58,738 nucleotides of DNA from Perkinsus olseni (lineage: Eukaryota). The position numbers and the translations under genes are program-made. Positions 18,382-43,768 of this stretch are shown here, one piece after another. Location of the stretch: positions 1 to 58,738 of the forward strand of contig JABANN010000162.1 in the NCBI GenBank assembly GCA_013115125.1. The letters are read 5' to 3'. The notes under the pieces are model-generated. The model saw only the letters and a program-made list of their open reading frames with translations. It did no database searches and was not told the DNA's origin. The first letter of the stretch is position 1. Each line of letters opens with the position of its first letter.

Positions 18382-18613
18382 ACATCGTATTATAAGACAG
18401 ATGTAGCTCTATGCAGCCCGAATGATGACTGTTCGAAAGCTACCCTACTTTTTCAAACTCTTTAAGAAGACTTCTTAGGACTACTAAAAGGATAATTCTT
18501 TCAGAATGATGGTTTGAAATTCTTGAAGAATTCCAGAGGATACTTTCCTTCTTGTTTTTCGGCCTGTTCAGTCGTTGAGCTAAGAGCGGCAAATGCTCCC
18601 TCCGGTTGATCGA

Positions 18614-18741
18614 ACAGTGTAGTGACTCTTACCGGTCAGAGCAGTTGTGTTATGACTCTTACCGGTCAGAGCAGTTGTGTTATGACTCTTACCGGTCAGA
18701 GCAGTGTAATGACTCTTACCGGTCAGAGCAGTTGTGTTATG
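18614..18741. repeat. Minisatellite, 4 copies of a 27-30 nt unit with core GACTCTTACCGGTCAGAGCAG
   Basis: Directly visible tandem units; the core is near-palindromic. Confidence 0.9.
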
Positions 18742-21520: not shown

Positions 21521-22084
21521 AGCGGGGTCCTTTCCGTCGGAAAGTTTACGACATTGCAGCCTCCGAAACCGGGCTTCCGAACATTACGATGTGCGAATGA
21601 GCTAGGGAGTTTGAAGGAAGGCGACCTATTCTAACTGCACGCACGAAGCTTAGCAGCCCTCAAGTCGGAGCCTTCGTCCAAGGTCTTTCGACCACGGGAG
21701 ATTAATCCTAATCCTCGAGAATCTTGAGTCAAGATTAAGGCTCTCGCCTCGAGAGTGTTGAACTGATGGCTCAAACTCAAAGCATTCAAGCCAGTGGCCT
21801 AGCGACGAGCATTGGATGCTTCCATTTTTGGATTTTCATAACACAACTGCTCTCACTAGAAAGATTCGTCATTTACTGGATCAAGCGAAATTGCCGTTCT
21901 TTGCCTAACGGCCGGATATGTCGGAAATTGAAGGAGGAAGAGTATCTTCTGAACTTCTCAAAAAGTTTGCAAAAATGAGCAGTGGCCGCGGCTACCCTCT
22001 TCAAGAGGTAGCTTTCGGAGTCGGCCATAGATCCACATTTGTGACGTCGTTATCGTCACGGTGATCGGTCTACTAATACGATGC

Positions 22085-23658: not shown

Positions 23659-26559
23659 CTTATGTTGAAGCTTATGTTCGGCCGTCATTAGCTTTAATGG
23701 TTGATTGTGCAGCACAATTCGTGCGGCCCTGCCTGACAGACATTTCCTGTGCGGAGTAGAGTGGGAATAAAGCAGTCGTGCTGCTCAGTAGACAGTCGGA
23801 ATTCCCATGACTCAGAGGTTGGGACTCCCAACTTGGGAGGGTGAAAAATGAGCGGCTCTGCTGGCCCACTCCACCCTGCCTGTCAGAGCCAGCAACTAGC
23901 CTGTGTTGCTGTCACCTTGTAGTTGGAAGCCACCATGGTTCAGTAGGATAGGATAGCTGTCCCATTCCATACCCGATATGCCTGCTCCTGACGGCCAGTG
24001 TGTCAGCGCAGCTAACTTACCTGCTATAAATTATAGCCTATAATCAATTGTTCGCTATTCGTGATTCGACCTCATTTGATCATTACTAGCTTCTCCGGAT
24101 TTTTGAGTCAAAAATCACTTTTTGCGGCTGTGCGTCTGTTGACACGCACAGACCAGCTTTTGTGCGTAGTAGACAGAAAGACAGGTATGCCCTGGTCTGT
24201 TTGGCGGACGCTAACACAGTAGCCGCAGGGGACTTGGAAGAGGCGATTCCGAAGCCCGAACAGTGCTGTGAGTACTGAGCAGCGGTGTATGACTCGTGAG
24301 GCATCTCAGAGCAGCCGAGAGTCGTGTCAAACGGCTCGCGTCAGACAGGGGCGCGGCTCAGGTGCCAGAACAGTTCTGGCAGAACTGTGACAGCCAGTGG
24401 GCCACTGGCAGTGGCTGTCAGCCACTACGAGTTGGTGAGCAAGCGAATCATGTTGAGGCATGAGATCGCGACTGGTGATCCCCGAACCTAGCAGGTCGAA
24501 GCACTCTTCCCAATCCCTTCCCATCCTCTTCCCAATCGCAAACTCTCGCGCGCACCGCATCCGGATTCCGGCGGCGTTCAACATGAATTTAATCCCATAG
24601 CGCGCTGTTGTCTGCACGCCTTTTGTTATTAGTGGAGAGCCCAAGGTTTGCCTGGAAGAATTGTAAAACGGTCGTACTGAGTGTAGTGTGGTCGGGACAT
24701 GAGTGTGCAATGGGGTTAGTCCAGGACGAATGAGGATTGGGGCAGGGACCTTCGCGGGGATGGGTTCGGAGGTCGCTCACGTACAAAAGTTTTGCACGTT
24801 TTGTAACGAAATGTTATCCCGACTCGGATCCTGTGGTCTCTTCTTCGATCCGTATGTTCGATGCCAGATTCTTCGGTGACAAAACTGTTCGGTCCATTGG
24901 AACAAAATGACAGGAGCACATAACCTTTAGATTTTCGAGAGAAGCTTTTGATCCGTGAATAGAAAAAGAACAGTCGATTCATGAAAATGAGCCTCACCCA
25001 GTGAAATTCCAGTGTGTGCCGCCGCTCTAGGTCGAGTTTGCCATTCATTTCCGGAGTCAGTGTTGGTCAAAATCGTGCTCGGGGTTAGCCCGGCGATGGT
25101 TTTGTAGAGTGAAGGAGGCTCTGCCCAGAAACAGTATATGGAGGCCGAGCTCATGGATAACGTAAGGTGCAGACGCTCCGAAATTCCCTTCCAAGTACCG
25201 CAAAATGCGGCGCTTATGACGATCATCCAACTTTGGCTTTGGCCCGGGCTGCCTCTCGCGGCCATAGCCACACAGTCTATCAGATAGAAGTATAGACTAG
25301 CCTCTGCCTAAGGCTTGTTCCAGAGGGATCCCGCCCCTGAGAGAGCGGCGTACAGTCAGGCTCTATGAAAAGCCTGCTTGGGTCAGAGCGTGAGCATGTG
25401 ACACGCAGCATGTCGCCGGGGGTCTTTTCGAGGCTCTTTCGCTCTGCCGCCCGGGGGACGGTTTTAGCTACGTTCGAGTCGGAGGTTTCCGATTTCTCAG
25501 TTCGTCCCAGCCAGTGGCTGGCAGCCACCCACTTGCGATATGGCATCCCCGATGAACACCTCCGGTCAGCCGCTGACAGACAAGCGGTTCAAGTCACAGC
25601 TCAGGTAGCTGTCAGAGCCGCCGCTGCAGCCGAGCAAGAGGAAGGCGAGGCTGGCGCAGAAACCGCCGTTAGAGGTGGCGCAGAACCACGAAGACAGTGG
25701 CAGGATTGTCACCCAGGCGCGATTTTTCTTCGTCGCTCACTATCATGGCGGCGGCCGCCGCTCGTTCGTAGAGCCAATTTTCATTTCTCGATATGATACT
25801 GCTGATGTCGTTGATAAAGTGTCAATCAACGGACCATCGACCAATCTCGATGATTAAGGGTCACGGCAGCGGAGACCCGCTCGTCAAGGAGGGCGCACCT
25901 TCCGCCCTCATCAACATCCTCTCAATCCTCATCAGATTACTCCCGCTGAGTCTGGGAAGAGACTGGATCTGCGGAAGAGTATCTTGCGTGTGTTGACTCA
26001 ACACCAACGAGTGTCTTGCGTTACTTAATTAGAGCCTGTTTATCAAAGCCAAAAGTTCAGCCGTGCCCCGATCATATGGCGTCGTCCAACAGCTCCACAC
26101 AGGAGCTGCTCAAATTGAGCAGCTCAATCGAATCCTTCAACAACACCTCAAACAGGTCGAGACTTTGGTCTCCACCTCAACGCAACAGATCTTCCAGCAG
26201 CTGCAGAATGAAGAAGCACTGAGCTCCCTTCCAACCGATTGTAGTGTTCCCGGCTTGACCAGGACGTTCACTAAAAACAGCAGGAATCTCGCCACCCTTA
26301 GAACTCGACGGAAGCTGTGACATAGAGAAGGAAGTCAGGCTCTCAATACTTCTTACTTATACATACATTAAATTTAGTCTCAATAATAACTACTAGCTCC
26401 ACGCTACTAGCGTGACGCAAGAGCAATACACAAAGGGCGCTAAGATATCATTGACCTGCACACGCCGCAGAGACAGAGCGAATACAATGATGTATCCGAA
26501 TAGAACAACGCTAAGGAGAGGCGGATCACTACAGATGAGGTTGACGCGCACGTCTCAGA

Positions 26560-28740
26560 CGTGGCGAATGCTGCCGGAGGTCCTCCTCCACGAGATGTTC
26601 CGCTCCGCGAGCGTAGGCGGAATAACGAATACTGCCCTGTTGCTGACGAACGATACTTGAACTACGAAGATGCTCGAAAAGCACTTACGAAACTGGCGGG
26701 TCTCTCTGAGTCAGGACGGGAGATGATTCTCCTTAACACGTACCCCAGAAAGAAAACTGGGGACTATGCGATGCGGTTCAGATGCCCGTTCTCTCTTGCG
26801 ACAGCCTGTCGCCGACAGGCTATGTCACGCAATGTCCTGGTTATATATATTGCACCGAGGATGATGTTTTCACCCTCGCTCTACCACCGTCCCCTCATCC
26901 ACCTCATGAATCGCTGGACCCGTCCAAGGCACGAGTGGGGGAGCGGAACGCTAAAATGGACGATGTCATCTTGGAGTCCAAGACTTGGACTGCCTCAGAA
27001 AGGACGCGAATGTCGACACCACTCTGAGAGAACTTGAACGGAATGGGCTTACGATAAGCGGATGGTTCTTGTCAAGAACCATCCGCTTAACTCAAGAACT
27101 TCTTGAGTCGACTCCAGCGGCGATAAGCCGCTTATCTCCGCTGGAATCGACTGAGGCTCGAAGCTTGAGGCCTCCTTCAAGAGCGCGCCTGATAGCGATG
27201 GGCTCCAGTCTCTTGAGGAAATGGAGAATCTGTGAGAGCATTGCCGGCCCGGCCGGAGTTCGCAATACTTGCTCTGCGTTGTCGCTAGACTTCTCGCCCA
27301 CCATCTTCATCGGAGACGCCGATGGGATATTCGACAAAGGCTGGCAGCAGGTGGGACAGCCAATTCGCTATGCGATACTGCTAGCGCCATTCCTTTCGCT
27401 GCTCGATGCGTTCTGTTTCTCAGACATTCGGCGAAAATGTGTTTCCCTGTGGCCTAGACCAAAACTATCAATGGCCCACTATCCAGCCCGACGAACTCCT
27501 TGACGGTCCTAGAACGCTGAGGATCTTCTGCTTCATTCACATTTGGACTCCAAATTTTGGAGGAACGTCGAACGCAAAGCCCGGTCCCTTCTAGGCGAAG
27601 ACGAAAAAGAATCGTTCAAGCAAGTTATTTTTTAAAAACAAAGGCTGGGACACGACTTGTTCCCCGTCGCAAATTGCGACTCGTAATACAATTACTCCGC
27701 AAAGAATGGGAACCTGCTCCTGCGGTATGGCGGTACTTTTCCTCACAATGGGTGCACAAGCGGGCTACTTGGGGCAGAGGTTGCTGGGGAATTGAACTTA
27801 AAGGTTCAATTCCCAAGAAAGTTTCTTGGGCCGTCATAATAATTCCCTGGAAGCTCAAAACGCGGCCCTGCGACACCGTGAGCTCACCTCACCGTAGCTG
27901 CTTCATCAGCTCGATAGCTCCCTATTCAGGCAGAATAAAGCAAGGCACGACGTTGTCTAAACGTTATTGGTGGAACAACTATGTGTTGCGTGCCGCACAT
28001 ACTCGTGGAGGCTACACGATCCAGATATGGAAATGGAAGGAAGTACCGCAGCGCCGATCCCTCCTCCTAGCCGGGCCCACGAGTGTCCGAGTTCCTCCGA
28101 AAAGTGGACTCCAATGATGCTGCGCAATGGGCTTCATGGTCGGATTTCGCCTACCTTCACATGCGTCAGACGCATGTAACAGAGACTCTCCGCATCGTAA
28201 CAATAACTACTGGTAACATCCCACCTATATGTACATGTAGTGATGCCAAGGGTGTCTATTGTCGCCATGCTCTGGGGATTATGCTACTTGAGGGACGTTG
28301 CGAGGAGGCATCGTTGCATGAAGTCCGTGTAGCCGGAACACTACCGCACGGGAGGCCTCGGTAAGGTTCACCCGCCGGGTGACACCCGGCCAGGAGGTCC
28401 ATAAGATGACGTCTTCATGTGATCATGTGACCCTCAGGTACACGCAGGCGACGGCATTGCAAACCGACGACTCGTATATTCGCCGTCATCTGGCCCTACC
28501 GCGACATCTCGGATCAAATGCGGATGATGTTGACACTCCAGTGGAGTGACTCCACCGCTTCCTGAAGGAGCACGAGCTATTGCTCCTGGGTCCTATGAGC
28601 CAACCGAGCAAACTCGAGTTCAGTTCTTCATCCAAGATCTCAGCACGATAGAGGGGATGAAGACGGTAGCTATACTTCACGTGATCTTTCTCGGAGAGTC
28701 ATTCTCTCAGATCCGCAGAGAGAAAGATTGGCACAGATAG
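26560..28740 (+). mobile_element. Degenerate Mutator-like (MULE) transposase with SWIM zinc finger
   Basis: N-terminal RFRC...CPGYIYC...HPPH Zn-binding-like segment (frameshifted), FIGDADGIFDKG and FCFIHIW (the MULE D...CxxH region), and SWIM CTCSDAKGVYCRH. Element ends not identified. Confidence 0.65.
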
Positions 28741-29188
28741 GAGAAATGCTTGCCTTCGGCAAGCATTTTCCTCTCCCCGGATGAGCTGCGCATCCAGGTT
28801 CGATCCCCCCACTGGGCAGTTTTTTCTAGTCGATTATTTTGTGATGACTGTTCGGCTTGTTTGAGTTGAAGTGCTTTTCCCATTTTCCAAGCGCTTCCAG
28901 AATTGATTCGAATTTCCAGAATCATCCCCATGAGCACACTTTTAAACATTGCGGAGCGAGCGAAGCGAGCGGAGCATATATTACAGTTCACAGTCACTCG
29001 TGTGCGGCGTGCGTCCGTACGTCCGTCCGTGCGTAAGCACAAATTTCTGCTCAACTAGACGGTGTTAGGCAGCATGCAAGGCGTCAACACGCGCGTCCTA
29101 CTATTCTGATCACACAAAAAATATAGCGAAGTCTAAATTTTTCACTCCCCCACTTTCCAGCCAAAATAACTAATTGCGCAACTCTGTA

Positions 29189-29266
29189 AGATATGTAGTC
29201 CAGTAGGTTAAGGCTCAAGCCTTCTTTTCGATTCACCCAGGTTCGATTTCCACAAGCGACTTTTTT
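29189..29266 (+). pseudogene. Full-length tRNA-like pseudogene or SINE head
   Basis: A-box TAGTCCAGTAGG at 29196, B-box GTTCGATT at 29241 (45 nt spacing, as in tRNA), then TTTTTT; the stems are broken. Confidence 0.65.
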
Positions 29267-29881
29267 ATCTTTCCCTTTTTTGTTGCGATACTGTTTCCAG
29301 TTTTGTTTTTTGTTTTCGGGCCCTGCGATTGTCAAGTTTTGCTGTCGACGTCGCCGATCAACGAGACTTGAAGTTGGCCAGGTGGAACAGAATTGGCAAG
29401 GGAAAAGCCGCGGAAGAGCGCCGAGCCCTTGAACGTCGGTTACGCGCCGTGACTTCTGACTAGCTGCTACGAATTCTGCTATGTCGCTCGAGTTGTTGAT
29501 CGGTGTCCTTATAACTACCATTAGAATGTGCCCAATGTCGCAGCGTTCGAGTCTCTAACGGCGTTAAATCAACGCCAGCGAGCTCCGCCCCCTTCGCACT
29601 GAAGGCCTAGTGATTGAGCTGTGGCAACTGTACTCAAGGCTTGATTGCCTGTGCTGCTTGACTGCGGCGCGATGTGTTTGGCTGGTTGAGCTTGATAAAT
29701 GTTTCGCAAGCGGCTCTTATATTCTACGATAGCAGACGTGGATAATCCCATTTTCACTCGGAAAAAACTACATTCGGCACACTAAGAATAAGTGTTAGGC
29801 ACGCTCCCAGTCAGTCCAATTTCTCATCAGTATTTTCCTTGTACCCTTGATTACTCTCTTCCAATACCACCGCTGTGAATA

Positions 29882-32800
29882 ATGTACGTCTTATCGAAGA
29901 CTGTTGTTATAGCGGTCACGTGGCTGCTGCTGTTGATGGTATGTGGAGGGGACGCGGTAAGTAACCGAATAGACATAATGGGGTCAGCGACCATTTCCAC
30001 TGAGTTTCATGTTCTTCCGTATGTCGATAGGGGAGCGACTGTGATGAGATTCTTCACCGCCAGTGAAAATCGGCACGTAAAATCGGCATCGGTTACATAA
30101 AAATATCGTCTATGCTTATCGTCTGACTATTACAATTTCGTGGTGTATTAAAATAGTCGTGTAATGTTCAGTAGAATAATAGTGGTGCTTTTACGTAGTG
30201 CATATCCGAGTAACGGCAACGTAAATAGGTGGTCGGAAAAATCGCGAAAATTGCACCGTCATGAAAAATGGAGTTGCTAGTTAGTGGAGCGTTCAACACA
30301 CTAACTAGACGCTAGCCCTCGCCAGCCCTCTGCTGCCTCGGCTCGCCGGCCTCATCATACTGCCGAGAGCTACTGTGATCTTAACGGCGTACCAGATGTT
30401 AACATCAGACGAGCGAGCTTGTGTGACGGCCGTCTAGACGTTCATGTCTAGGCCAGCGCAGTTTGTTCAGGCGGAAGAAGCAATCGCTGGCGGAGGGTCG
30501 TCACCGGTGAACGACAAGTCGGGGGAACTGGATGGGGGTATCTTGGTCTACAACGACCTTGCCCATCGTGATGTGCTTTGTCGCTACATTCAGAGTAATA
30601 GAGGGCGGTTTTTTCATACGGTAATTTTGGTCGTGTCCAGTCCCGGCGGACGCCAGACGCATCCGAGCCACTGCTGCTGTCATCGGGCTGACCGGCAATC
30701 CTAATTTATTTGCCGGATTTGATGAACAGAAGTTGCGTGATAGAATTTACAAGGAGGCCGCCCCGACCAACCAGGGAGGTTATCATATGATACACGATAC
30801 GTAATGTTGGGGAATTTCGTGGCGCGTGACGGCTCATTGGGGCGGCGGTCATGGCTGCAGGTACTTCGTGCCAAAGTCGTCTGATGGTCGCTTCTATCTC
30901 TGCGTGACGACCTTTGCTACCCAGGGAACTGATTTTGTAAGGAATGCGCAAAAGTGTCGCTGCGGGGGATCGAACCAAGGACCTTTGGGTGACGAGGTCA
31001 GGTGCTTACTGGAGTGGTCTCGAATGCTGCTGAGTTCGGAGTGGAACCTGTGATGCCGCTGCTAATGGAGTACCCTACTGTCCAGAGTGTCGAGGCATTC
31101 GGCCGACACCGGGAGTATCGGGTACTAAGGGATGGACTGTCCCACCGCCTAGCGCGCCGTACACATAGCGCGTATATTGATTCTGGATTGAGAGCTTTCC
31201 ACGTGTGGCCCTACTGAGGGCTCTAGCGCGGGAGGGCTTTTCGTGACTTGGGTGCTGGTGGCGTAATAATTTCAAGAACGGTCGACTAAGAGACTTCGCA
31301 GCGTAGATTAGTATCGTGTCCGGTTGGTGATACGCGTAAGTGTCACACTACTTTGGGCGGTCAGGTGGTTCTGCCCAACGCGCCAGAGACGAGCGACGGC
31401 GCCGTCCCTCCTATCACCATCACAGTAGCACAGATAGTTGGAGAGACCGATCTAATGGTAGTAGTAGAGTTAGTTGCGATTTACGAGTGGAGTGGTATGA
31501 TAGGTGCACGCATGTGGTAGTGAGCAGTCATTGGCCGTGTCCGCTGTTGATGGCCCGGATACGGTGACGATTACGAATGAACAGCTCACCAGTGCTGGAC
31601 TCGGGCCAGGCTCTGAGCTCTGTGTTGTTGTTAAGACTAACAAGCTCTTCGCCAGTGCTTCTACGTAGGAGGGGTTTCGTGGCGCGGTGATGAATTTTGT
31701 GGCGCGGTGACAGGTTCTGGCTGGTGGTTTCGCAGAGTCCACAGGGACCTTTCGTTATGCAGAGCTTGCCGATGTATGCTGTGATACCAGGAAAGGGATC
31801 ACAGCGGGTGAGGAAGTTCCGCACCTATTTCAATAAGGGTAATCCAAAGGTCCCCGGATCGATCCCTGGTGAATGTAGTTTGTAGGTACTGATCTCACAA
31901 TAACTGCCAACCCGGTGTCGGCTAATGCAGTGAAGGAAGCGGCCAATAGACCTGGGGAGATCCAGGTAGTTAGTGGCGCATCTTTTGTTCCGTCTGGTAC
32001 CACCTCAACCTCGTGGAATCATCATGAAATTATTGTATTATCATATGACTTGCAGGATACTGATGGATCTCAGTATAAAAAATGCGTTACCATGTCATAG
32101 CGCGGTCGTGTACCTTGTATCAGCACATGGCGCGTATCTTTTTAGCGTGGACCTCTTTTGTATCTTACTATGATCGACCTTGTTGCTATCTTACTACGAT
32201 GAAATCCGCTGACAGTAGCTCTATTTCAGTCGGGATCCGTACCGCACATCGTAGCGGACACGACGCCCACCGGTCAAACGTGGAAGGACCACGGCGACGG
32301 TCACATCGCCATCGATAAGTCCAGCCTGGACGGCCACGCTGGCCAGGGCGAAATCGTTTACGTATCGGTCACACCACCCAACGATTGGCATGAGAATTCT
32401 GAGATGCCTTTCGAGCTCACAGTGACGACAAGTGAGTCGGGTGGGGAGGTTGTTCGGGTGAATTCAGCGGATCTTCTTTGCTGGTATGACGCCAGGAAAT
32501 GAAAACAACAGCGATGGCAGTTGAGGATATTGAAAATCTTCGTAGTGAGCGCGGTAATTAGACCCAGTTGGAAGAGCTATACAGTTCTAGGGGGAGTATC
32601 TTATGCTACTAAGGTGAAGTGGTTATCGAGACAGTAGTGATGGGAACTGGGAGTATTGAAAATCTTCATAGTTAGCGCAATGGTTAAACCCAGTGGTAAG
32701 AGCTAGGCAGCTCCGTGGGAGGGTATCTTGGTACTCTTGCGATTGATGGGTCAACCTGCGTCGTGTATTGGTCCATGTTCAGGTAGCACGGTCAGAGATC

Positions 32801-35800
32801 TACAGGATGGCAAGCCCACCACTGTGACCATCAGTGACTCGAGAAAGTTCCGGGATTTCCGGTAGTAACGGTCGTGCCGTTTCTGGTTAAGATTACCGTC
32901 AACGTCGCAATTTCGTCGCTGTACGTGATGAGAATTGAGAGTAATAAGCGTGCGGAGTATCCTTTTCGGAATGAGAGCAGTGACCGAAAAGGGCAGGCGC
33001 ATTATGCAGTGTTCGGAGGGGAACTGAAGCACGGATCTTCCGGCATGGATTTGGCAAGCGTCGACTTGCACGCACTACGAATTTTTGTCATCAAATTTTA
33101 TAATGGGCTAAGGGGTGGAGTATCTTTTGGCCGTTTCAGATACTGGGTGCCCAAGCATGCCAGAGTGGTGCTCTCTATAATAGGAGATTCGTCGAAGGAT
33201 GGAAGTGGTCTGGCGATATTCGCGGACACCACCAGATACAGTCACGATCCTCGAGGGTAATCTTGCAATCTTGCGTTTCCTTAACGCTAACTGGCATCTG
33301 CAAGGTATACGTTCAATACGATGGAAGGGTCCAACGAGATTTTCCTTACCAATATGAAGTACTATGCGCAGTCCCATCCTGGCAAGGTAAGGGGGTTTTG
33401 TAATCCCGAATTGGGAGAAATGTGGTATGAAAATGACTTCCAGGTTCAATACGTCAACTGCGATATGGGCTATATTTACCTGACTGTTAAGAGCTGTGCT
33501 GTAGCCAACGGCAAATGTGTTGAGGATGCCTCCGTGCCTTCGACGTTTACGTTGACGGTGTCCAGTGATACCGGTAGTAGTAGCGGGGGTAGAAGATCTG
33601 AGGATCGTGGTGGTGTATGGAGGGGCGCTCGGAATGATGTTAGGAACAGAGCGCAATGGCATGAATTCACTTTTATTCGAGGCGCGCACGTCCCCTAGAT
33701 GGATATGAGCGCATAGTGACTGAAGCGGTGGTAGTGATGTTTCTCATGGGGTATCTTAGGGTCGACTCACGTTCAAGATGGAGTGCCGATCCATGAGAAG
33801 GTTCACATGGCGAAGAAATTTGTTTATACTAATCCTATGTTGGATAAGAAGGTGGAGAAGAAGGAAGTAGAGGAAAGCGCGGGAGAGGTAGTTGAAGATG
33901 TCGGCTCTGGGAGTCGAACCGGGGGCCTTTGGGGGCGCTATAGAAGATGCGACTGATCTACGTAGTTGAAGCAGCTCTGTCTTGATCCGGTTCGTGGTAG
34001 ATGTAGTCAGCTCGTTAGGCGTTGCGATTGTCATTCCTCTTCGTGCAGGGAAGTGGAAGCAGACAATAGTTCACTATGAGAGATGTGGTTCGTCCGGGGA
34101 TCGAACCGGGGACCTTCTGTATTTAGGATAACTCGAAGGATGATGGATCTGACTCTTCCTCGATACACTTCAACGACTTGTTGGTGAAGGCCTCGGTGAA
34201 TAGCGGCAGAGGGTCGCTGATGCTGAGCAATGACGAGAACTTCGCAACTAGTAGGTGCCAGCGGCTGGGTTTGAACCCGGGTTGTCATGCGGTTCGTCTT
34301 AGGCACGCAAGCAGTATTCTGCGGCTATGATGACGCTGGCGATACGAAGGCTGACGGCGGGAACATCTGCACCTTCGTTGTCAAGAAGGACGATCCAATT
34401 CGGAGCAGCAAATATATCTACGCAAAACTGGTACGAGGCGCAACCGCGATGATATTTGTGCGGGGTATCTTGGTTGTTACTTTGGTCGGATGCTCGCGCA
34501 AAGATATTTCTACGAGATGTTTTCTCAGTGGGGAATCAGAGATGAATTCTTCTGAGGTTTTGCTCTTCGTCTCAGATACCGGACCTTACGGATGGTACGG
34601 GTACTGCGTTGCTGGACTTTGACTTTTTGATGGCTGATGTTGGTGGAGAAATTGTGATGAAAAATCATCAGCCGGTTAATGACGCTATGTCGGCTGGGGG
34701 CAGTCGGAAGTATAAGATTTTTATACCTGCGTCTACATCGAGGTGAGTATCTTAGGTTGAAGCTGGCAAGATACAGAGTGGGTCAAGATGATTTGAGTGG
34801 TGCTTTCTCAGTTCTTCTAACACTCCTTCGCCCGTTTCTGCGATGTTTGACGTGTCTAAGACTACTGGTACGGTGGAGTTCGACATTTGCGATGCCGCTG
34901 AGTAAGTTGAAACGCTCTCCCTGGGGTTCGATCCAGGGTTGCTCGCATGTGGTACCGGCTATATGTCTGATTCAGGAATTGCAAGACTATCAAGGGTGAT
35001 GGTTCAGCACAATTGGAGGAGAACACCAGCAAGGGGAATGTTGCCGGCAAGTGGATTCATGTAAGCAGTCTCCGTGCGACGATCCATCTTGATGTCCGCT
35101 GTTTTTGCCGGGCAAGTCGTCCGCGGCCCACTGATCCTTTGATCGATGGTTTCGGCGTTGTTCCGATCGTGTAGCTCGGCCAAGCACTTCTCAGTTCGGG
35201 CTAAGGACCGATTCTGACGGACTTAGTGGTACCGATGTCTTCCGGGTATTTTCATGAATCATCTTGTGGAATGCAGAAAGGCTGCATTGATTCAGCTGGC
35301 AGGTGCATGCTAAGTGTGAGGACAAGTGCTCGTACCGGATCACTGGAGCCTTCTTCCTCAAGTCCAACTCGTTGAGACTGAACTATAGGCCCATGACAGT
35401 CCCACTGGATGGCGGCAGCTTCAAGGACTGTAATGACTCGGGTTCGACCCCTGCAGTCGACGATCATTCGGAATCCTTTCAGGGATGGTTGGGTATAAGG
35501 ACACCGATCACTGGCTTCTCCATACAGAGGTCCGAGGGCAGGAGGCCGATGCTGTTAAGACTTGTATTAAGGACCAATGTTGTAATATAACCGGAAGTAT
35601 TCAAGTCATTTTACTGACACTTCTAGCTGTCTTGTGGGCGTTATGGCCGATTTCACTCGGCACTTGTACATCATCGACTAGTCTTTCCTGTTCGATAGGT
35701 ACGGCCGGGACATGCACCCTCTACGGCTTTGGAAAGGAGATCGCCAAACTGGAGAACTTGAAGAGCGACACGATCACCTACGTCCAGCTGTACTATGCTC

Positions 35801-38800
35801 TTGTGTGCCTTGCGATGTTCGGATATGCTCTCGGCAGGTGGGCTACGAAGTTGAGCTTCCCGGCGATGGACGAGTGGCTGGATGTTACCAAAAGGGGCAG
35901 CAATATCTACAGGCTGAATACCAACTCATTGGTGTCATTTGACGCTGAGAAATCCAGCACGGTAAGAGCGGTGGGGAGAGGTGGGCGTATCTTTATGTTG
36001 AAGCGTGTAGTTCGTGGAATCGAGGATGCGATCACTGGCGCTATTGGCACGTGCGGCCCAGGTTAGCTCTTTTCTTGTAGCTTTTCGAATGGCAGTGGCA
36101 TGAACAGAATTGCTCGCCGAAGTGGGGCGGGCTGTCCGAGGCTTGATTCATCTTTTTCTGTGTTGCAGTTCAGCACTGGAGCGAAGGTGTCAGTATCGGA
36201 TTCTCTGTTCGGAGATTACCAACCACTGAGCGGCGAGAATCTGATCGACTGCACCGGCAATAAAATGAAGTTTGTGAAGGTGGGTGGACCTACGCATTCT
36301 GGCGTAGTGGTTATGATGTGTGTAGGTTGATGGGACGTCCCGGGTTCGAATCCATGCGCCGTTAAATCTTCAAGTCGGCGAGTGGGCGTATAACCCTCAC
36401 TGGGTTATGTGGGGTGGCAGCTCCCTCAAGCAGAACGTCCACGTGGAAAGCTGCAACCTCGAGCCGGCTGATGTGCTGGTCAATGGTGATACGCGGAAGG
36501 AGATTCACTCCGACTGGACTGGGGGCGTCTGACAGGCACGGCTGTTGATATGTCGTCTGCCCATAATTACGCCGCGAATGATGCCAACTCGCTGCTGCTA
36601 ACGGCCGGCGACGCAACAGTAGCTTACCGAGTGGGGCTGTTCAATCAGGTTGGTCAGCATGGAGGATATCTTCGAAGGAGCAGTTGTTATTGTTGTTATC
36701 CAGGTCCCCATCCCACTAACGGTACACTCTAGTCGGCAGAGTCTGGAATTCATCGCGCCGCCTAATGCCCAGAACAGCCTGTAAGCTCGGGCCTCGAGTC
36801 GTTGGTCGCTGTATCAAAGCTAAGGTGGAGATTGATTAGAATTAGGATTTGCTTCGTGGATGGAATGTTGAATCCGGCGCAATTCGGTCTATACTCTGTC
36901 GCTAAATCTGGCTGAGCCAGTCGATTGTTGTCGAAAAACTGGCTCTATTTTGGAAGCCGAAGGCCTTCAGTCAGCTACAGACTTCAGTCAGACATCACAT
37001 TCCGTATGTCAGTGGATTTGATGTGTATTCAAAATGAGTCGTCCATGGCAAACCCCTTTCTATAATGGTTAAAAAATGCCTGGAAGCGCACGGCGTACGA
37101 ACCGGATGGCCGTTTATGGCGATAGATTCTCCTCTCTCATCCGCCATTCCCAAGCCTCATCGCTTCGAGCCTGCTGGGAGTGATTGTAAGTTCAGTTCAG
37201 TTGTGAGTTCTAGGGCGCGACTCTCTTTCGAGTCTCTCCCGACTTCCGTACTGAGAGTCCGTATCAGTACAGCAGGCCTTCAATTCTTCGTGCAGTGCAC
37301 TCGTCACAGAGAATTGAGGGCGTTGTCGTACGCCGACAATGAGGATAACCTTCGATCGAATCACCGGGCAGCTAATCGCCTTCGGGCGAGCGTGCGCACG
37401 CGTGCGTCGAGCGTAATTTATCAGAGGAGTTGGGAACACTCAAATTAAGGAGTGGTAATAAATGGAGGCTAGTGAATGGACATGAGGACCTACGAAGATC
37501 GGCTCAGCGGTACCTCGGCCGTGGGGACGTCCCAGGGTATTGCGGCGGGACTCAGTCTGGGTTGATACGGTCGTGTTCTGTAGTTGCCCGGAAACCTGTC
37601 GCATTAAGGTGTTGCACTAGGGTCCTGGGTATGGCTGAGGATGCCGCCATCCGAGACGATGTATCTATCCCTCGCATACGGAACTCCCTGGCTGGCATAC
37701 GAATTATCGGTATGATCACTGACCCTTACGCCAAGTGAAACGCCTGATCGTTCGATGTAGAGAGAGTAGCGCCTACATCCTCGCTGATGCAGACGTTGTT
37801 CGGACCGTATAGCTATGCCTGAGCCTCCACCCTCGGAAGGTCAAGTCCCGAGCTGAGCCTCTCACCTAAGGAGCTCGAGGAGCTCTACTCTCAACATTCG
37901 AGTCTCTCGTCCAAGGAGCTTGGCTGCACGAACCTCGGTGAATTCGACTTCGAGACACTCTCAGAAGAGCCGGTCTACATTAGACCATTTAGGCTTAATC
38001 CTAAGAAGACCCAAAAGGTCGAAGCACTACTGAGAGACTTTGAAAAGCAAGGGTTCATTGAACCCGCGAAGTCGGACTACTCATCTCCAGGGTTTGTCAT
38101 CTCCAAGAAGGACGGCTCAAATCGGTTAGTCATCGACTACCGGGCGCTGAACAAGCGCACAAAGAGGGATCGGTATATAGGGCCAGCCGTAGATCAGATC
38201 ATCACGGGGCTGAGCGAGGCAAGATGCTTCAGCAGCATAGACTTGAAGCATGGGTTCCACCAGATTAAGGTATCCGCCTCGGCAAAAAGGAAGCTAGCGT
38301 TCTCGGTCGGTGGTCGGCAATATACATGGGCTCGTATGAGCATGGGACACTGTAATTCTCCCAGCTGCTTTCAAAGGATCATCGATAAGGCCCTAGGCCC
38401 GCTCGTCGGGTTATGTTGCTATGTGTATCTCGACGACGTTATCGTCTTCTCGAGAGACCACTCCTCTCATATGCGAAGTCAGAGATTTGATCACGTCGTT
38501 GAAGAATGAATGGATATCGGGCTTCGTGGACATCAGACTGGGCGGAATGCCATACGTAAAGAGCGGCCATCACGCCACCGCCTACGGCATGGCGCGCATG
38601 ATCACGCGTGATGCCGGGGCTTTTATTACCAGTCTAGCATCAATTTCATTGGGTTTTCGATACGGATCTGGCCCGTCGTGACAAGTTTGTAGCAGACTGT
38701 CCCGACAAGGAGTTATTCGCTTGGTTCAAGAGACTGATGTCGAACCAGGGACCATAGTGTCCCCAGGATTCGCCAAGGATAGAGGCCGACTTAATTCTAA

Positions 38801-40121
38801 GCCTCTCTCAGTGCAGCATGAAGCTAGCACGCCTCAAGACAATTAACGAATCGGCCTAATCGTCGTAGCATCGGCAGTGTAGTTCTATACTAAGGGTGAT
38901 GCAACGATTGAGACTTAATGAGTGTGCGGTGTGGGGGGTTTTCTGATCATTGACTGACGATAGGATCGCGAAAATCGGAGTAATTTACCTCCTATACGCG
39001 GGTAGCGAATTTCCTGGTAACTTTCCGCTCAGCGGCGGGCGCGGCCGCAGAGCAAGTCATCGCTTTTGCGTCAGGTACCGAGTCATCTGCAGTTCCAAGT
39101 ATTCCTCAGCAAGCTCCTGTGCGTTGGAGCTGTCGGAATCGACTCTCCACTCAGCATGGACCGGTTGTAAAGGAGATCGAAGGTGCTCCATTACTGTGCC
39201 CTCCGAATGTAAGCATTGTCACTGTTGGGAATCGAACCCGCCTTCTCTTCAATCTGGGCTCGTCCATGCCGACCGGACTCTGCCGAAGATGGATTGATGA
39301 TTAGCGATTGGTGCCACTGATAGAAGGGAACTCCTTCACAGGTCTCGCCGAAGGCTCCCGATTGAGCGTGGAAGCCCGCAAGGGTCCGATCTACGGCCTC
39401 TTCCACCCAGCCACTATGACTGGAGCGGGAGTCGCTGATAGCGGAGCAGCAGCAGAAGGCAAGGATGGCTTGGGAGTAGTAGAGGAGCTTCCCACAGGTA
39501 AGTAGCGCTCGCCCGATTGATCGATTATCCTATGATGATCAGGGAAACGATGGAGCTGGACCTCTCTCTTCCTCCTTTCGGCCTTGGCGTACATGGTTGT
39601 TCGGTGTATCTACAACATGCATGTGTATGGGGCCTCTGGGTTGGAAGCCGTACCGCATATCGACACAATGCGCCGTGCGATGTTCAATCTCCAGCACCTA
39701 AGGTAGGGAAGAGATCGAGCGAGGTCTAGCGTCCGCGTGCGGTTTGTGTCTTCGTTGGTGGCGAGGTCAGTGGGCGAACTGATGTTCTGTGCGGTCGCTA
39801 GAGGTGGTCGCTGCCGCTATAGTTTGATATAATGATCATGTATCAACAACAAGGGTATGGACACTGCATGCTCTCATGCAGTGTATTGAATGAATTTAAG
39901 GACTTGGTGTATCGCAGGAGTGTGAACTTGTTTCGGGACCACCGCTTCTTTTGTGCGTGCAAATTTTGTTTGGTATAAAGTGCGTGTTTGTGTGTTGGCA
40001 AAGGCAAACAAACGCTCGCATTTCCTTTCATGTCGTAGTTTTTCCGATTTTGTATGACGAATTTATACGCACAACAGGTTAACTGAGACCGTAGGCATCC
40101 TTTCTACGTGCAATTGTGGTG

Positions 40122-40170
<49 letters not shown>

Positions 40171-40430
40171 GCTCTCTCCATATGCTGAGGGCTCTGATTG
40201 AGTACTTGTCACAATTTGTTGTTCGCAGGTGGTCGAGGAAGTTCTGGCATTCGGACAGTAGTACTCACATGATGGAGTTGGGCACGGAGATGGACTACCA
40301 TGACATCGAGAGCAATCGTGACCATGGCACCACCAACACAGGCGGTTATCGGCGTCATGATGTTGGCCAGCAATTAACGAGCAGGCCCAATTCGACCTAC
40401 GCTCCGCTACGTTACGAAGAATCTTTGTAG
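29882..40430 (+). CDS. Large multi-exon type-I membrane, receptor-like protein
   Basis: Signal peptide exon MYVLSKTVVIAVTWLLLLMVCGGDA; many short in-phase exons (YFVPKSSDGRFYLCV, YWVPKHARVVL, QYVNCDMGYIYLTV); late TM WSWTSLFLLSALAYMVVRC followed by YNMHVYGASGLEAVPHIDT; tail ends TYAPLRYEESL*. The join across 36.9-39.0 kb is inferred. Confidence 0.6.
32526..32729. repeat. Diverged direct repeat (two ~77 nt copies, period ~126 nt) in an intron
   Basis: TATTGAAAATCTTC...ACCCAGT...AAGAGCTA...GTATCTT occurs at 32526-32602 and 32651-32729. Confidence 0.8.
37824..38473 (+). mobile_element. Ty3/Gypsy LTR retrotransposon reverse transcriptase fragment, 3'-truncated
   Basis: PVYIRPFRL, GFIEPAKSDYSSP, KKDGSNRLVIDYRALN, FSSIDLKHGFHQI, MGHCNSPSCFQR and YVYLDDVIVFS; homology stops just after YLDD. 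Confidence 0.92.
40122..40171. repeat. (TTG)n microsatellite, intronic
   Basis: About 16 perfect TTG units. Confidence 0.97.
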
Positions 40431-41378
40431 ATCATCATAATACCGTTTACCTGAAGAGCAAGAGTTCCTGTTGCTTTGTTATCGTAGTAGATGATATCTT
40501 TGCTTCTATCAAGTATGTACTTTGGTTCGAGGTTCATCAATCGCTGGGATATCGCTATAGATGGATGCGTTGATAATTCTATACCGTTTTTCGCCCGCAT
40601 CATCCAGTAGGGTGACCGCTCTTCGGTAGGTTCTTGCTTTTGCGTGTGAGTGAGTTTTCAGCCAAAAAGGCTTGCTGAGGCCCTGCCGTGCCCTCATTTT
40701 TTGGGGGCTTTACGAACAGACGTATTGCTGTTGTCGACTATGGTGAATCGCCATTGGTGATGCCCGACTTCGGACGCAACTGTCTCGAACGGCCATCGGG
40801 CCCTTCGCCGCTGCGGCTTGTTATGTATTTCAAAAAATATCGGTAGCGCTGAAAGACGACACTGATGATGCCACTTTAGTTTTGTGAATGTATGGCGCCT
40901 CTTCGACGGCCGAGTTCTTGCGGAACTTCGCACGGAAGACAGCTACGGCAATCTGGATGTTCGGCCCACCTTTAGTGTGGATCAAGGATCGTGTCGTCGA
41001 TATCGAGATTGTGAGTCCACGGCCGCTCCGACCCCCCTCAAGTACTCCTCTTTAGGTGCAAGGGCACTCGATGAGCCCGACCCTCAACCCGGGTAGTAGC
41101 TGGTTCCGTGATAGAATTATCGTACTGCGGAATCTCGTGATTGGCCCGGGCGATGTGGTGACGTTTTGGGACCCCTTCGACCCTAAAAGGTGATGCTAGG
41201 CAGGGACCTTGTCTTGAGCTATTGCCGCTGGATTGCTGCTGTCTGGATTGTTGTGACGGCGATTTTGAATTCACTCTCCCGTGATCAACGGCGGAGCTTG
41301 GAAGTTTTAATGGGCAGCATCAGGCGGAGCGATGTTTTTAAGAGTTTTTCGACTAGGGTGGTACGGTAAATTGAACTG

Positions 41379-41477
41379 NNNNNNNNNNNNNNNNNNNNNN
41401 NNNNNNNNNNNNNNNNNNNNNNNNNNNNNNNNNNNNNNNNNNNNNNNNNNNNNNNNNNNNNNNNNNNNNNNNNNNNN
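41379..41477. other. Assembly gap (N run)
   Basis: Run of n characters. Confidence 1.
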
Positions 41478-41555
41478 GTATGTATGTATGTATGTATGTA
41501 TGTATGTATGTATGTATGTATGTATGTATGTATGTATGTATGTATGTATGTATGT
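41478..41555. repeat. (TATG)n microsatellite abutting the gap
   Basis: Perfect GTAT/TATG units directly after the N run. Confidence 0.97.
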
Positions 41556-42268
41556 GTGTGTTTTAGGCATCTGGTGAAGCGAGTGGTCGCAGTCGAGCCA
41601 CGGCATCGTCGGCCGTCGAGTGTGCGTACTGTGGATGACTACGACGAATTGGGTGGTGCTGGTGGTATAGATGAAAGTACCCACAGTGTGGCCTTTGAAG
41701 ACCTCGGCGGCAGAGTGTAAGCTAGACTCGGGAATGCATGGCCAGACCGCTGGTCGTGTCAGATACGTCCTGGGCGACAATAAAGACCGGAGCGTCGACA
41801 GCAGGTACGGAAATCTCGACTGATGTTTATCCAGTTTTTTGAAGAAAATGTTCTAGGGAATACTCCCTCTAATCGCTTCCGCGTATTCAGCGTCGTCCAA
41901 GCTTCCTGAGTTGATTTGAGCCGCAGATTCGGACTTCCTACCGATCCCGATCCACTGACGCTATTCGCTCCGCCGTGAACCTGTCATCATATCGGGGAGA
42001 AGGAACCTTCGTCGCTTGGGCAATCCATATGAATGTTCCTATCAAGCGTTCCCCATCTTTAGATACTTCGGCCCTATCCCTCAGCCGCTCATCGATGGTC
42101 TGGTCGTCGGCGTCATCTGGCCGCCATGGCGAATGTCTTGGGTGCCGCGACCGCCTCCTGATGTCGATGACGAGGTTGATGATCGATGACCCGTTTCCTG
42201 CAACCCGTTCTGCTTCGCGCTGGCAGCCTGTGGCCTTTCATCATTCTCTAGCTTCATTCATTGTTACC

Positions 42269-43093
42269 ATGCCGGTCATTTGTCTCGGTCCCGTTTGCAT
42301 CCCCATCTGGCCCCTGGTGGTGCTCATTCTGAAGCCTGCATGGAATCTTCTGCCGCAGCAGGTTCGTGAGTGCATAGCGGATGCGTGGTAGGCGGCGTCC
42401 GTGTCCGGCCAGCGTGCAAAGTCTCGTGTGAGGTACACTATGTGGGAATCTCTGACCTTCATCCCGGAGAGGTTCAGACCCCGAAGGCCCGCGTCTCGGG
42501 GCGGCAAGGTGCAATGTAAAAATGGCGTGTGCACATGGACGCCCGATGATAATGGCGAGGTTAAGAAGGAGTCCTCGGCTACCACACCTTCCACGGATGC
42601 TGCTGAATGTAGGCTGCTCAACGTTTGTAAAGAGAGCTGACGGAGGTTCGTTTCAGTCACTGAGGAGGGGGAGGTAATCGAGCTTCAGGAGCCTGAAGAA
42701 TTCGACGAGCTGGTGATGTCCAACAAAATGTTCATCGTAAGCAGGCGGGCGTGCTCTCATTAAATAACACTCCTGACGTCTCAGGTTGATTACAGCGCTG
42801 AGTGGTGCCATCCGTGCCAGCTCATCGCTCCGGTTTTCGCTGAGCTCGCTGGGCAGTACAAAGGCAAGGCAAAGTTCGTTCGAGTTGACGTTGGTCAGTC
42901 TGGTTGGCTTGTCTTTGTGTATCTTCGACGACTCCGTTTTTGATTATCAGATGTATTAGACGACTTGGCCCTGGATAACGGCGTTACTTCTCTTCCGGCC
43001 TTTCACATTTACAAAGGCAATGAGAAGCTGGAGACTGTGGTCGGTGCCAACCCGGAGAAGCTCAGAGCAGTCATCGCCAAAAGATGCGAATAA
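42269..43093 (+). CDS. Thioredoxin with N-terminal hydrophobic extension, multi-exon
   Basis: MPVICLGPVCIPIWPLVVLILKP, then CKNGVC, then VDYSAEWCHPCQLIAPVFAELA, KFVRVDV, GVTSLPAFHIYK and VVGANPEKL. Confidence 0.88.
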
Positions 43094-43768
43094 GAGGTTC
43101 ACGTGTAAATCTTAAAGTTCCTGTTGTTTTTCCTCATTCGAGGATGATTCGCGTTATGGGTGAGTGATGAGTTGGGAAGCAGTCTGAAACAACCATAATG
43201 GAGCAAAAGACGCAGCACACGCGAGGATTCTCCTCGGCGCTTCGCCGTAGCGTACCAGATAGCCGATTCCCCAAAATGGACCGTGATGGCTGCTCCCGCT
43301 ATACAACATTCCCATGTACATGGTGCAGACCTCTGATGTGTTCAGCAGCGAAAGACGTGCATTACATTACATTGCTGACGTTCTATAGCTGCTGAATGTA
43401 TAATGGTGACGTTGACCTGATACCAACGGTGTCACATCTTTGCATTACTTACTTTGAGCAGGGACCGACCAAAAAATATTTCGTTTCCGAATGGCAGTCC
43501 CTTGGAGGTTCATTTCTGGGCAACTGGAGGGACGATTCCAGGACCGAAAGCTCGGTAGCTTGATGGACCCCGTCCGAGACAAGTTGTGCAAATTGTGGTA
43601 CGGTTGCGTCCTGTGTCCCGAACTTCAGCCACTGTGGCTAGAATGCTTGATGGTGATAATCCGTGCTTCGTGAGGTTGTTTAAGGTTTGTTATAACAAAA
43701 CTCGTCGGTGGTGACATTATATTTTGGCAGTTTACTTTTGAATTTTCTTTCATAAATACTTTCAAGTT

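Follow-up and report, generated by a model that had tools for sequence, protein, structure and literature searches.

Clustered sense-strand copies of G-N-GTATCTT in the long introns of one Perkinsus olseni gene: a tentative RNA docking element with neutral local spread as a close rival

The window considered here is the whole 58,738-nucleotide stretch of Perkinsus olseni contig JABANN010000162.1, and the word that concerns us is concentrated in one intron-rich gene within it, referred to below as the host gene. Its model was assembled from spliced RNA contigs of four public runs and describes a single open frame starting with the ATG at 30444.

30444 to 36783, + strand: first part of the host gene, 26 exons (3,320 nt) and 25 GT-AG introns (3,020 nt)

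The exon that follows position 36783 begins at 39078, where a loose RNA-contig end matches 39078-39107. The listed splice joints, 15 of 44, are all GT..AG, and the 25 donors are degenerate, with little in common beyond GTA or GTG and with GTACGA, GTGATA and GTTGGT among them. CTRAY-like words of the ordinary type, judged by eye, lie nearer the 3′ end of the introns. The abnormally long introns of the gene measure 145-351 nt, and most of the others 46-65 nt. G also exceeds C to an unusual degree in this stretch (skew 0.15-0.19). A metagenome scan for relatives with the exon at 35485-35787 returned none, and nothing resembling this DNA turned up among the other stretches surveyed.

A preliminary description of this DNA had listed ten exact copies of GTATCTT on the + strand, and all ten were found where it placed them.

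Copy 1, 30538 to 30544, + strand: exonic, within GGGTATCTTGGT, coding for G-I-L
Copy 2, 32134 to 32140, + strand: intron 31966-32229 (264 nt), 96 nt ahead of its 3′ end, in unit 1 of a 26-nt tandem
Copy 3, 32160 to 32166, + strand: intron 31966-32229, 70 nt ahead of its 3′ end; the third unit of the tandem, at 32186, reads CTATCTT
Copy 4, 32596 to 32602, + strand: intron 32432-32782 (351 nt), closing unit 1 of a 126-nt tandem
Copy 5, 32723 to 32729, + strand: intron 32432-32782, 60 nt ahead of its 3′ end, within GGGTATCTTGGT
Copy 6, 33120 to 33126, + strand: intron 32862-33139 (278 nt), 20 nt ahead of its 3′ end
Copy 7, 33751 to 33757, + strand: intron 33574-33759 (186 nt), abutting the 3′ splice site as GTATCTTAG, after which the exon begins
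Copy 8, 34465 to 34471, + strand: intron 34431-34575 (145 nt), at +35, within GGGTATCTTGGT
Copy 9, 34747 to 34753, + strand: intron 34743-34811 (69 nt), at +5, GTGAGTATCTTAG; stem partner of the antisense copy
Antisense copy, 34768 to 34774, - strand: the only one in the host gene, forming a 7-bp stem with copy 9 around a 14-nt loop
Copy 10, 35987 to 35993, + strand: intron 35962-36168 (207 nt), at +26
Variant GTATCCTTT, 32957 to 32965, + strand: the 278-nt intron, at +96; identical to the canonical U12-type 5′ site word, not junctional
Variant GTATTTT, 35246 to 35252, + strand: intron 35061-35302, 57 nt ahead of its 3′ end
Variant ATATCTT, 36666 to 36672, + strand: 55-nt intron 36649-36703, at +18

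Both of the variants described earlier are thus present, as GGGTATTTT at 35244 and ATATCTT at 36666. The units of the 126-nt tandem are 75% alike over 83 nt. Units 1 and 2 of the 26-nt tandem both keep the word unchanged; the remainder of the units has, to the eye, diverged.

The excess of the word is real. Both strands of the window together hold 28 matches against 5.47 ± 2.66 expected, a number reached in none of 100 dinucleotide shuffles, and GTATCTT is the leading 7-mer of the whole window once low-complexity words are set aside (z 8.0). Between 30300 and 36900 it is the top 7-mer, occurring ten times where the runner-up occurs five times. The host-gene introns contain nine copies against 0.27 expected from a Markov-1 simulation (z 16.6; Poisson 1.6e-11), an expectation derived from 21 introns before the full model brought their number to 25. 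Since the copies within the two local tandems (32134, 32160 and the CTATCTT at 32186 in one, 32596 and 32723 in the other) are not independent, the nine reduce to seven independent intronic loci (Poisson 1.6e-8). The nine are spread over seven of the 25 introns, and the cluster is limited to 31966-36703, about 4.7 kb. All seven belong to the 11 introns of at least 69 nt, as against none of the 14 shorter ones; corrected for length, the absence from those 14 is not significant (P 0.086 for nine copies, 0.15 for seven loci).

Orientation and location are equally uneven. Ten sense copies in the host gene face one antisense copy (binomial 0.006), and nine lie in 3,020 nt of intron against one in 3,320 nt of exon. 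The wider core ATCTT follows suit, with 21 intronic, 2 exonic and 7 antisense occurrences; there are none in the first seven introns, one of which is 243 nt long. Most copies had been described as lying inside predicted introns, and nine do; the copy at 30538 is exonic, an RNA contig running unbroken across 30470-30594. A G-rich run had been noted ahead of the word, and this is borne out by a G at -2 in nine of ten copies (p 1.8e-4) and by G in six of ten at each of -3, -4 and -5, so that the extended word is G-N-GTATCTT. An A precedes 21 of the 33 intronic TCTT (p 1.7e-7), and the base following the ten copies is G in three, A in four and T in three. Exact and one-mismatch forms stand at 10:12 on the sense strand and 1:9 on the antisense strand, with 21 different one-mismatch words in existence. 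The word occupies no splice junction, and its intronic positions range from +5 to -9. Checking its distance to the 3′ splice site gave no fixed value (9, 20, 60, 65, 70, 96, 111, 182 and 187 nt), and it stands at no set distance from the 5′ splice site either.

Elsewhere in the window the pattern does not recur. Of the positions that had been assigned to introns of other genes, 42919 is intronic, 18288 and 22172(-) lie in introns that are predicted only, and 7946 falls outside every predicted gene.

42919 to 42925, + strand: copy in a thioredoxin-like gene, at +26 of the 57-nt intron 42894-42950, as read from the sequence
18288 to 18294, + strand: copy in a 47-nt intron, 18258-18304, by prediction only

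The exon following 42894-42950 matches positions 62-102 of Pfam PF00085 (E 2.5e-4, under the curated cut-off). The copies at 18288 and at 22172-22178 on the - strand are one paralogous pair within a duplication that is 90% identical, and 7946 and 7931(-) are the two arms of a small palindrome. Across 15,069 nt of predicted introns in the window's other genes, as delimited by rough gene predictions, GTATCTT occurs three times in sense and three times in antisense, and ATCTT 25 and 21 times (1.7 against 1.4 per kb). Per kilobase, GTATCTT reaches 3.4 and ATCTT 8.0 in the host gene, against 0.2 for GTATCTT in predicted introns elsewhere. With no intronic excess in these other intron-rich genes, the word is local to the host gene within 58 kb, and a general splicing role is unlikely.

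Sense bias, near-absence from exons and clustering on a single transcript are together what marks a cluster of intronic cis-regulatory RNA motifs, and all three are found here. We tentatively prefer, at rather less than even confidence, to regard G-N-GUAUCUU as a sense-strand element of the host pre-mRNA that would be recognised by a sequence-specific factor. Such a short cis-element, with AUCUU as its core, would be read on the unspliced RNA; written as an oligonucleotide it is GGGGUAUCUUGGU, to which binding is putative. The candidate factor, either a protein or perhaps a small RNA, would have nine sites in seven introns, and our guess is that it would assist the removal of the abnormally long introns of this gene. 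It could do so by labelling internal sequence as intron and thereby keeping the numerous GT/AG pairs within it out of use. Of the earlier proposal of a lineage-specific splicing element, this keeps the sense-strand, intron-restricted, better-than-chance occurrence, the orientation of which an RNA cis-element fits best, and gives up the lineage-wide signal. T-arm islands within the host gene occupy both strands, and the sense bias is therefore not shared by all of the inserts there. Within the window the excess is specific to one gene, and this, together with the seven leading introns that lack ATCTT, counts against a docking role.

A close rival, and a possible explanation in its own right, is that a tract of 10-25 bases bearing the word was copied repeatedly and neutrally among the introns of the host gene. 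Tandem duplication, together with templated copying of short tracts as DNA is repaired or replicated, would spread the tract mostly in direct orientation and lengthen the introns. The exactness of the copies would then reflect their youth and not any use. The word is carried by two tandem arrays (26 nt in 3 units, 126 nt in 2 units), and identical words longer than the core recur, a 12-mer at three places and 9- and 10-mers at two or three. GGGTATCTTGGT and GAGTATCTT each occur three times and GCGTATCTTT twice. Copies 9 and 10 align across about 27 nt that include GTTGAAGC (z 3.8). Sub-families that share more than the core are expected from copying and not from binding. The confinement of the cluster to one gene and to its introns of at least 69 nt also suits neutral spread, as do two motif-like words in the 5′ exons that could be sources, one at 30536 and the other, GGGAGTATCGG, at 31111 where an exon closes.

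Against this, no process has been shown to scatter tracts of 10-25 bases over 5 kb in nearly always one direction. The flanks carry no residual similarity: outside -8..+7 their mean kinship is z 0.28, with 3 of 35 pairs above 2, and random intron positions give 0.16-0.47 in five control sets. A blastn-short comparison of intron with intron found no similarity except the tandem and the T-arm islands. Short repeats are no commoner here than in control stretches, which excludes a region-wide copy-and-paste effect, and a search of the long introns against the present exons by blastn and tblastx recovered only the core word, not decayed exon copies.

We consider it rather unlikely that the copies are cryptic or fossil 5′ splice sites, in which G|GTATCTT would be the alternative or former donor of short inner introns ending at the same 3′ site as the present ones. 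The degenerate donors of this gene would make such a site usable, and among the 15 exact or one-mismatch sites of the long introns that start with GT, five are 52-70 nt from the 3′ site, a span typical of introns here, where 1.44 would be expected; the interval giving this P of 0.016 was picked post hoc, and 46-74 nt gives P 0.07. A donor at 30538 would preserve the frame with 57 nt less, and copy 5 with its flanks resembles, by eye, the true junction 31121|31122. However, among the 15 of 44 joints listed from the assembled transcripts of the four runs, none opens at any copy. The conserved G stands at -2, where donors have theirs at -1, copies 6 and 7, at 20 and 9 nt ahead of the 3′ end, are unable to begin an intron, and removal of an outer intron cannot proceed by way of an inner one that has the same 3′ site.

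A directional DNA-level site clustered in the gene body, whether for a transcription factor, pausing or replication, is improbable. It would be suited by a well-defined 9-base word that is G-rich on its 5′ side and crowded into 4.7 kb of G-skewed sequence, but such sites usually occur both ways and here the ratio is 10 to 1, a bias that the DNA-binding site named in the preliminary description leaves unexplained; scarcity in exons is more in keeping with RNA processing, or with introns tolerating insertions.

Slightly less probable still is descent from inserted small-RNA genes, be it the eroded 3′ tail of a tRNA-like element (acceptor plus the T-run-like TCTT), a D-arm region or another abundant small RNA. 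Islands resembling T-arms and D-arms litter the word-carrying introns. Two relics elsewhere end as had been described, one running from its T-arm into GAGGGTATTTTT (- strand, 2204) and the other ending in GAGTATTTT at 9379, and the T-arm relic at 33920 (- strand) leads through its acceptor to TCTTCAAC. The proposed eroded tail nevertheless finds no counterpart at the copies, the T-arm word GGTTCGANNC being missing from the 30 nt upstream of all ten. Rfam matched neither a tRNA nor an snRNA at E up to 10 in 30000-37500, 32480-32790 or 33060-33170, and the islands are on both strands where the word is on one.

The chance that these are transformed U12-type (minor-spliceosome) 5′ splice sites, similar to the RTATCTTT of Physarum, is close to nil. 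GTATCTT is the canonical RTATCCTT less one C, three of ten copies show the Physarum '+6T' form GTATCTTT, the canonical GTATCCTTT occurs at 32957, and the intron 33257-33304 has TTCCTTAAC 19 nt ahead of its 3′ end. Yet none of the 25 introns starts with RTATCYT, every copy is internal to a spliced intron or outside the introns, and position thus refutes a U12-type 5′ site for these copies and removes the likeness behind the suggested comparison with U2 and U12 snRNAs. The classical branch word (TTCCTTRAC, no more than 45 nt from the 3′ end) is found in one of 25 introns, the donor of which is GTAATCTTG; the Physarum TTTGA at -9 to -12 is found in none of the 25; and TCCTTRAC, with 5 occurrences in the window against about 3.6 expected, is not enriched. 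The available portions of two sources report neither minor introns nor minor snRNAs from the Alveolata (PMC10639083, PMC7789003).

Four further candidates were rejected. A U2-type branch site or polypyrimidine tract does not agree with distances of 9-187 nt from the 3′ end, and a recursive splice site does not agree with an AGGT within 12 nt downstream in just two of ten copies (32596, 34747). A dispersed repeat, MITE or introner family was dismissed as repeat finder, blastn-short and flank test returned only a 9-16-nt core and the two local tandems. The 22-bp hAT-type excision scar (X1-7, reverse complement of X, X2-8) has 19 exact occurrences in the window, none in 30-40 kb and none at the copies.

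Clusters of splicing-regulator motifs are known from introns, including YCAY for Nova, UGCAUG for Rbfox, UCUU for PTB and the G-runs of short introns. The host gene resembles such clusters in that a sense-strand word recurs in the introns of one gene, flexible in position, with exact cores and unrelated flanks, and it has in addition a G-run just upstream and a TCTT inside the core. G-N-GUAUCUU itself matches none of those motifs, and its factor is putative. Among splice-site words, the nearest are the U12-type 5′ site [G/A]TATCCTT and its Physarum polycephalum variant RTATCTTT (bioRxiv 10.1101/2020.10.12.336362, available portion). The letters are nearly identical, and the Physarum motif too has multiplied enormously in introns, on their sense strand; there, however, it opens the intron and is accompanied by a branch word near the 3′ end, and here it does neither. 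The Perkinsus spliced leader has a putative Sm-binding stretch, ATCTTGG, within ACCGTAGCCATCTTGGCTCAAG, and the replacement of the dinoflagellate TTTT by TCTT is described as a Perkinsus peculiarity in the accessible parts of the same sources (PMC9399869, PMC3101222). Three of the ten copies contain exactly ATCTTGG, but the leader, as given there, has CC before ATCTT where the word has GT, and GG is absent from seven of ten copies; a search of the window for a spliced-leader relict gave no match with up to three mismatches. The introners of Amoebophrya, which belongs to the same large group, and of other protists also place repeated sequence within introns. According to the part of the source at hand, they are whole introns with terminal inverted repeats of 8-20 nt and direct repeats of 3-5 nt at their boundaries (PMC7789003), unlike the 9-12 nt or so that recur here anywhere in the intron and without paired ends.

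Whatever its origin, the word resembles a U12-type site closely enough to mislead automated intron classifiers. If the copies arose neutrally, they would record a very short-tract, orientation-biased duplication operating beside tRNA-fragment insertions and transposon scars. The docking reading can be carried further, to a doubtful proposal: G-N-GUAUCUU may be a lineage-specific "still intron" mark in a spliceosome tuned to introns of about 50 nt, where a factor, perhaps also the reader of the AUCUUGG of the spliced leader, would coat the rare long introns and block internal GT/AG pairs or trans-splice acceptors. If true, such a mark would be a new answer to the long-intron problem under intron definition. 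A full-text literature search found no account of an intronic GTATCTT word, and by the same search a bound RNA element would be the first intronic regulatory motif found described for Perkinsus. If bound, it would open a way to learn how a parasite whose introns are about 50 nt long manages others five times that size.

The heptamer GTATCTT, with G-N-GTATCTT as its fuller form and ATCTT as its wider core, occurs 28 times on the two strands of the window against 5.47 ± 2.66 expected, a count reached by 0 of 100 dinucleotide shuffles, and is the top non-low-complexity 7-mer of the window (z 8.0, order-2 Markov model). Between 30300 and 36900 it is the most frequent 7-mer, with 10 copies to 5 for the runner-up word. 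The preliminary description had listed ten + strand copies, and all were recovered exactly where it placed them, at 30538, 32134, 32160, 32596, 32723, 33120, 33751, 34465, 34747 and 35987 (copies 1 to 10), within a spliced + strand gene that begins at 30444 (the host gene); one minus-strand copy lies in the same gene at 34768. The intronic location also claimed holds for nine copies, distributed over seven introns, while that at 30538 lies in exon 1 and encodes G-I-L. The intronic copies range from +5 to 9 nt short of the 3′ end, with neither splice site at a preferred distance. Three of them are non-independent because of tandem repeats: a 26-nt tandem holds the copies at 32134 and 32160, plus CTATCTT at 32186, and those at 32596 and 32723 terminate two units of a 126-nt tandem, the units being 75% alike over 83 nt. 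Seven independent intronic loci compare with 0.27 expected (Poisson P 1.6e-8). The observation is genuine and has strong statistical backing, and chance and base composition are excluded as the cause of the excess.

The structure of the host gene was derived from contigs of four public runs, two recorded as RNA-Seq and two presumed to be RNA, mapped onto 17500-37400. These reveal a + strand spliced transcript of about 4 kb, for which 15 joints of 44 are listed, all 15 of them GT..AG. The model, built from the listed joints, contig pieces, two loose ends, lengths compared with a 4,002-nt contig and an unbroken frame, extends from the ATG at 30444 to 36783 and comprises 26 exons totalling 3,320 nt and 25 introns totalling 3,020 nt, fourteen of 46-65 nt and eleven of 69-351 nt. 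The exon after 36783 begins at 39078, and the intervening intron (36784-39077; 2,294 nt, about 40 times the usual length) carries a same-strand reverse-transcriptase ORF at 37823-38509 (PF00078, E 5.7e-23). Four single exons searched against Pfam matched no family, a metagenome scan with exon 35485-35787 found no relatives, and no internal repeats were found in the protein. The host-gene introns consist of G 0.31, T 0.29, A 0.21 and C 0.19, and 30001-44000 shows a strong + strand G-over-C skew (0.15-0.19 at 30-36 kb); a mutation bias linked to transcription would be expected to leave such a pattern. Further along lie a (GTT)n run at 40125-40172 and, flanking a 99-N assembly gap, a (GTAT)n run at 41379-41560.

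A G-rich run had been described before the word, and G does stand at -2 in nine copies of ten (p 1.8e-4, at an intron G content of 0.31) and in six of ten at each of -3 to -5, whereas the base directly after the word is unconstrained (G 3, A 4, T 3). The core ATCTT occurs 21 times in host-gene introns, for an expectation of 3.55 (z 9.4, computed on 21 introns), twice in exons and seven times on the antisense strand of introns; A precedes 21 of the 33 intronic TCTT (p 1.7e-7). Exact and one-mismatch forms stand at 10:12 on the sense strand and 1:9 on the antisense. Sub-family words recur as well: GGGTATCTTGGT and GAGTATCTT have three copies each, the former at 30536, 32721 and 34463, while GCGTATCTTT has two and GTATCTTA four. 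A common RNA fold was rejected, as the MFE partners of the word vary between introns and pairing with an exact complement is confined to copy 9, where the word at +5 of the 69-nt intron 34743-34811 is perfectly complementary to AAGATAC at +26, forming 7 bp with a pairing probability of 0.8-1.0. The AGAG that follows AAGATAC there may be similar to U6 snRNA in its catalytic-box region; likewise, the surroundings of copy 6 may be similar to U2 snRNA in its 5′ part, and the GAGTATC forms to a tRNA D-arm, neither with Rfam support. The exons at 33140 and 34576 begin ATAC straight after CAG, which gives a 3′ junction, AGATAC, complementary over 6-7 bp to the copy of GTATCTT that the preceding intron carries (at 33120 and 34465, respectively), possibly by chance, there being two cases only.

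Sense and antisense GTATCTT stand at 10:1 in the host gene vs 8:3 over the other gene spans (about 28 kb of the window), and ATCTT at 23:9 vs 45:29. In the predicted introns of other genes (15,069 nt) the ratios are 3:3 for GTATCTT and 25:21 for ATCTT, and the host gene has 8.0 ATCTT per kb to their 1.7. Two finders of our own served solely for such approximate tallies of strands and introns outside the host gene, one a rough gene finder that recovered 17 of 21 known introns plus false ones, the other a short-intron finder that recovered 6 of 13, again with false extras. Sense-intron copies had been claimed in other genes too, and these were upheld at three positions, but clear cases are few:

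42919, copy in a 57-nt intron of a thioredoxin gene
18288 and 22172, paralogous pair of sense copies in predicted introns

The window also contains two inverted segmental duplications of genes, introns included: 16807-18402 vs 23670-22064 (90% identical) and 43560-45015 vs 51411-49963 (97.5% identical). The first seven introns of the host gene are without any ATCTT, the cluster spanning 31966 to 36703; as these introns are bare and cases outside the gene few, GTATCTT characterises, within these 58 kb, a single gene and not introns at large. The notion of a general splicing element found no support, the predicted introns of other genes having no sense excess.

Judged from sequence, the best explanation, held tentatively, is a candidate gene-local, sense-strand RNA element. 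It fits the single-strand orientation, the exclusion from exons and the sharp core with its fixed -2 G, as well as the free position and unrelated flanks, and it leaves the restriction to one gene unexplained. That restriction fits a second reading, in which a tract of 10-25 bases was copied locally and neutrally; we place it only a little below the first. The two tandem arrays speak for copying, as do 12-mers identical between copies and the alignment of copies 9 and 10 over 27 nt (z 3.8); the link to long introns (7 of 11 vs 0 of 14) points the same way but is not significant with length counted (P 0.086). Such copying would require a hitherto undescribed mechanism that strongly favours one orientation, and short repeats in general are not in excess in the region. 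As for a longer repeat family, a repeat finder, blastn-short searches of the window with each intron, and an alignment of 13 sequences return the core only; the flanks outside -8..+7 resemble one another (mean z 0.28, 3 of 35 pairs above 2) no better than sequence at random intron positions does (five control sets, mean z 0.16-0.47), copy 32160 (overlapping 32134) and the tandem pair 32596-32723 being omitted.

That the copies are cryptic or fossil donors is improbable. Of the 15 exact or near-exact sites that start with GT, five are found 52-70 nt ahead of a 3′ site, where 1.44 are expected (P 0.016, for a span picked after the fact), and the donor consensus of the host gene is weak. Against this, the conserved G is misplaced, two copies lie too near the 3′ end, and none of the 15 joints listed of 44 uses a copy.

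In letters, GTATCTT comes nearest to the U12-type 5′ site and to a stretch within the Perkinsus spliced leader, ATCTTGG (given in excerpts of PMC9399869 and PMC3101222), which is present in 3 of 10 copies. A search of the window for a spliced-leader relict gave 0 matches. U12-type 5′ sites read [G/A]TATCCTT in canonical form, and in Physarum also RTATCTTT, in introns whose branch word, TTTGA, precedes the 3′ end by 9-12 nt (bioRxiv 10.1101/2020.10.12.336362, in excerpt). A U12-type 5′ site is ruled out by the position of the copies and the missing branch words: 0 of the 25 host-gene introns begin RTATCYT, and 0 of 25 have TTTGA at that distance. One word of the canonical type was found:

32957-32965, GTATCCTTT, canonical U12-type 5′ site word, 96 nt into a 278-nt GT-AG intron

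It is unused as a junction among the 15 joints listed of 44. The sole minor-type-looking intron seen, 33257-33304 (48 nt, GT-AG, RNA-verified), starts GTAATCTTGCAATCTTG, with donor GTAATCTTG, and alone among the 25 carries TTCCTTAAC, 19 nt before its 3′ end, which matches the classical U12 branch word 9/9; this is probably chance, given five TCCTTRAC in the window, where that word shows no enrichment. Excerpts of PMC10639083 and PMC7789003 describe Alveolata without minor introns or minor snRNAs. Distance to the 3′ splice site, proposed earlier as a check, is too variable for a branch site, and a branch site or pyrimidine tract is ruled out since that distance is not fixed.

An eroded tRNA-like tail, suggested earlier, is not supported: a T-arm word lies within 30 nt upstream in 0 of 10 copies, and T-arm islands of the host gene occupy both strands while GTATCTT occupies one.

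30967, 31856, 33911-33929, 34098, 34261-34286, 34925, 35441 and 36343, both strands, T-arm-like islands (GGTTCGANNC or complement)
2212, 28797 and 39229, further T-arm-like islands

These islands are mostly intronic, with one in a coding exon (36343); several include an acceptor strand together with either a T-run or the complement of CCA, and D-arm-like words occur too (e.g., TTTCGTGGCGCG at 30815, 31675 and 31695). tRNA fragments are present in introns of about 50 nt in the window, and a tRNA gene truncated by the window end lies at 58670-58738 (Rfam RF00005, 49.4 bits; unreported by ARAGORN). Rfam searches of three stretches at E up to 10 gave no tRNA or snRNA at the copies, the best match, a Giardia U4 model at 34752-34828 (E 0.91, 21 bits vs a cut-off of 100), being noise. 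Long introns as decayed copies of host-gene exons were rejected, blastn and tblastx recovering the core word alone, and hAT-type transposon scars were rejected as present in the window yet absent from the host gene: scars of 22 bp, in which X1-7 is followed by X in reverse complement and then by X2-8, number 19 exact and 41 at ≤2 mismatches in the window, at 15713-28555 (dense), 49026 and 55517, with none in 30-40 kb.

Among the matches listed in full-text searches, none deals with GTATCTT or GUAUCUU as a word of Perkinsus, and none with Perkinsus introners. Splicing regulators bind short motifs that are clustered in introns, and such clusters are the nearest known counterparts in function of the proposed element. 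As a candidate sense-strand RNA element, the word would act as a cis-element on the host-gene pre-mRNA.
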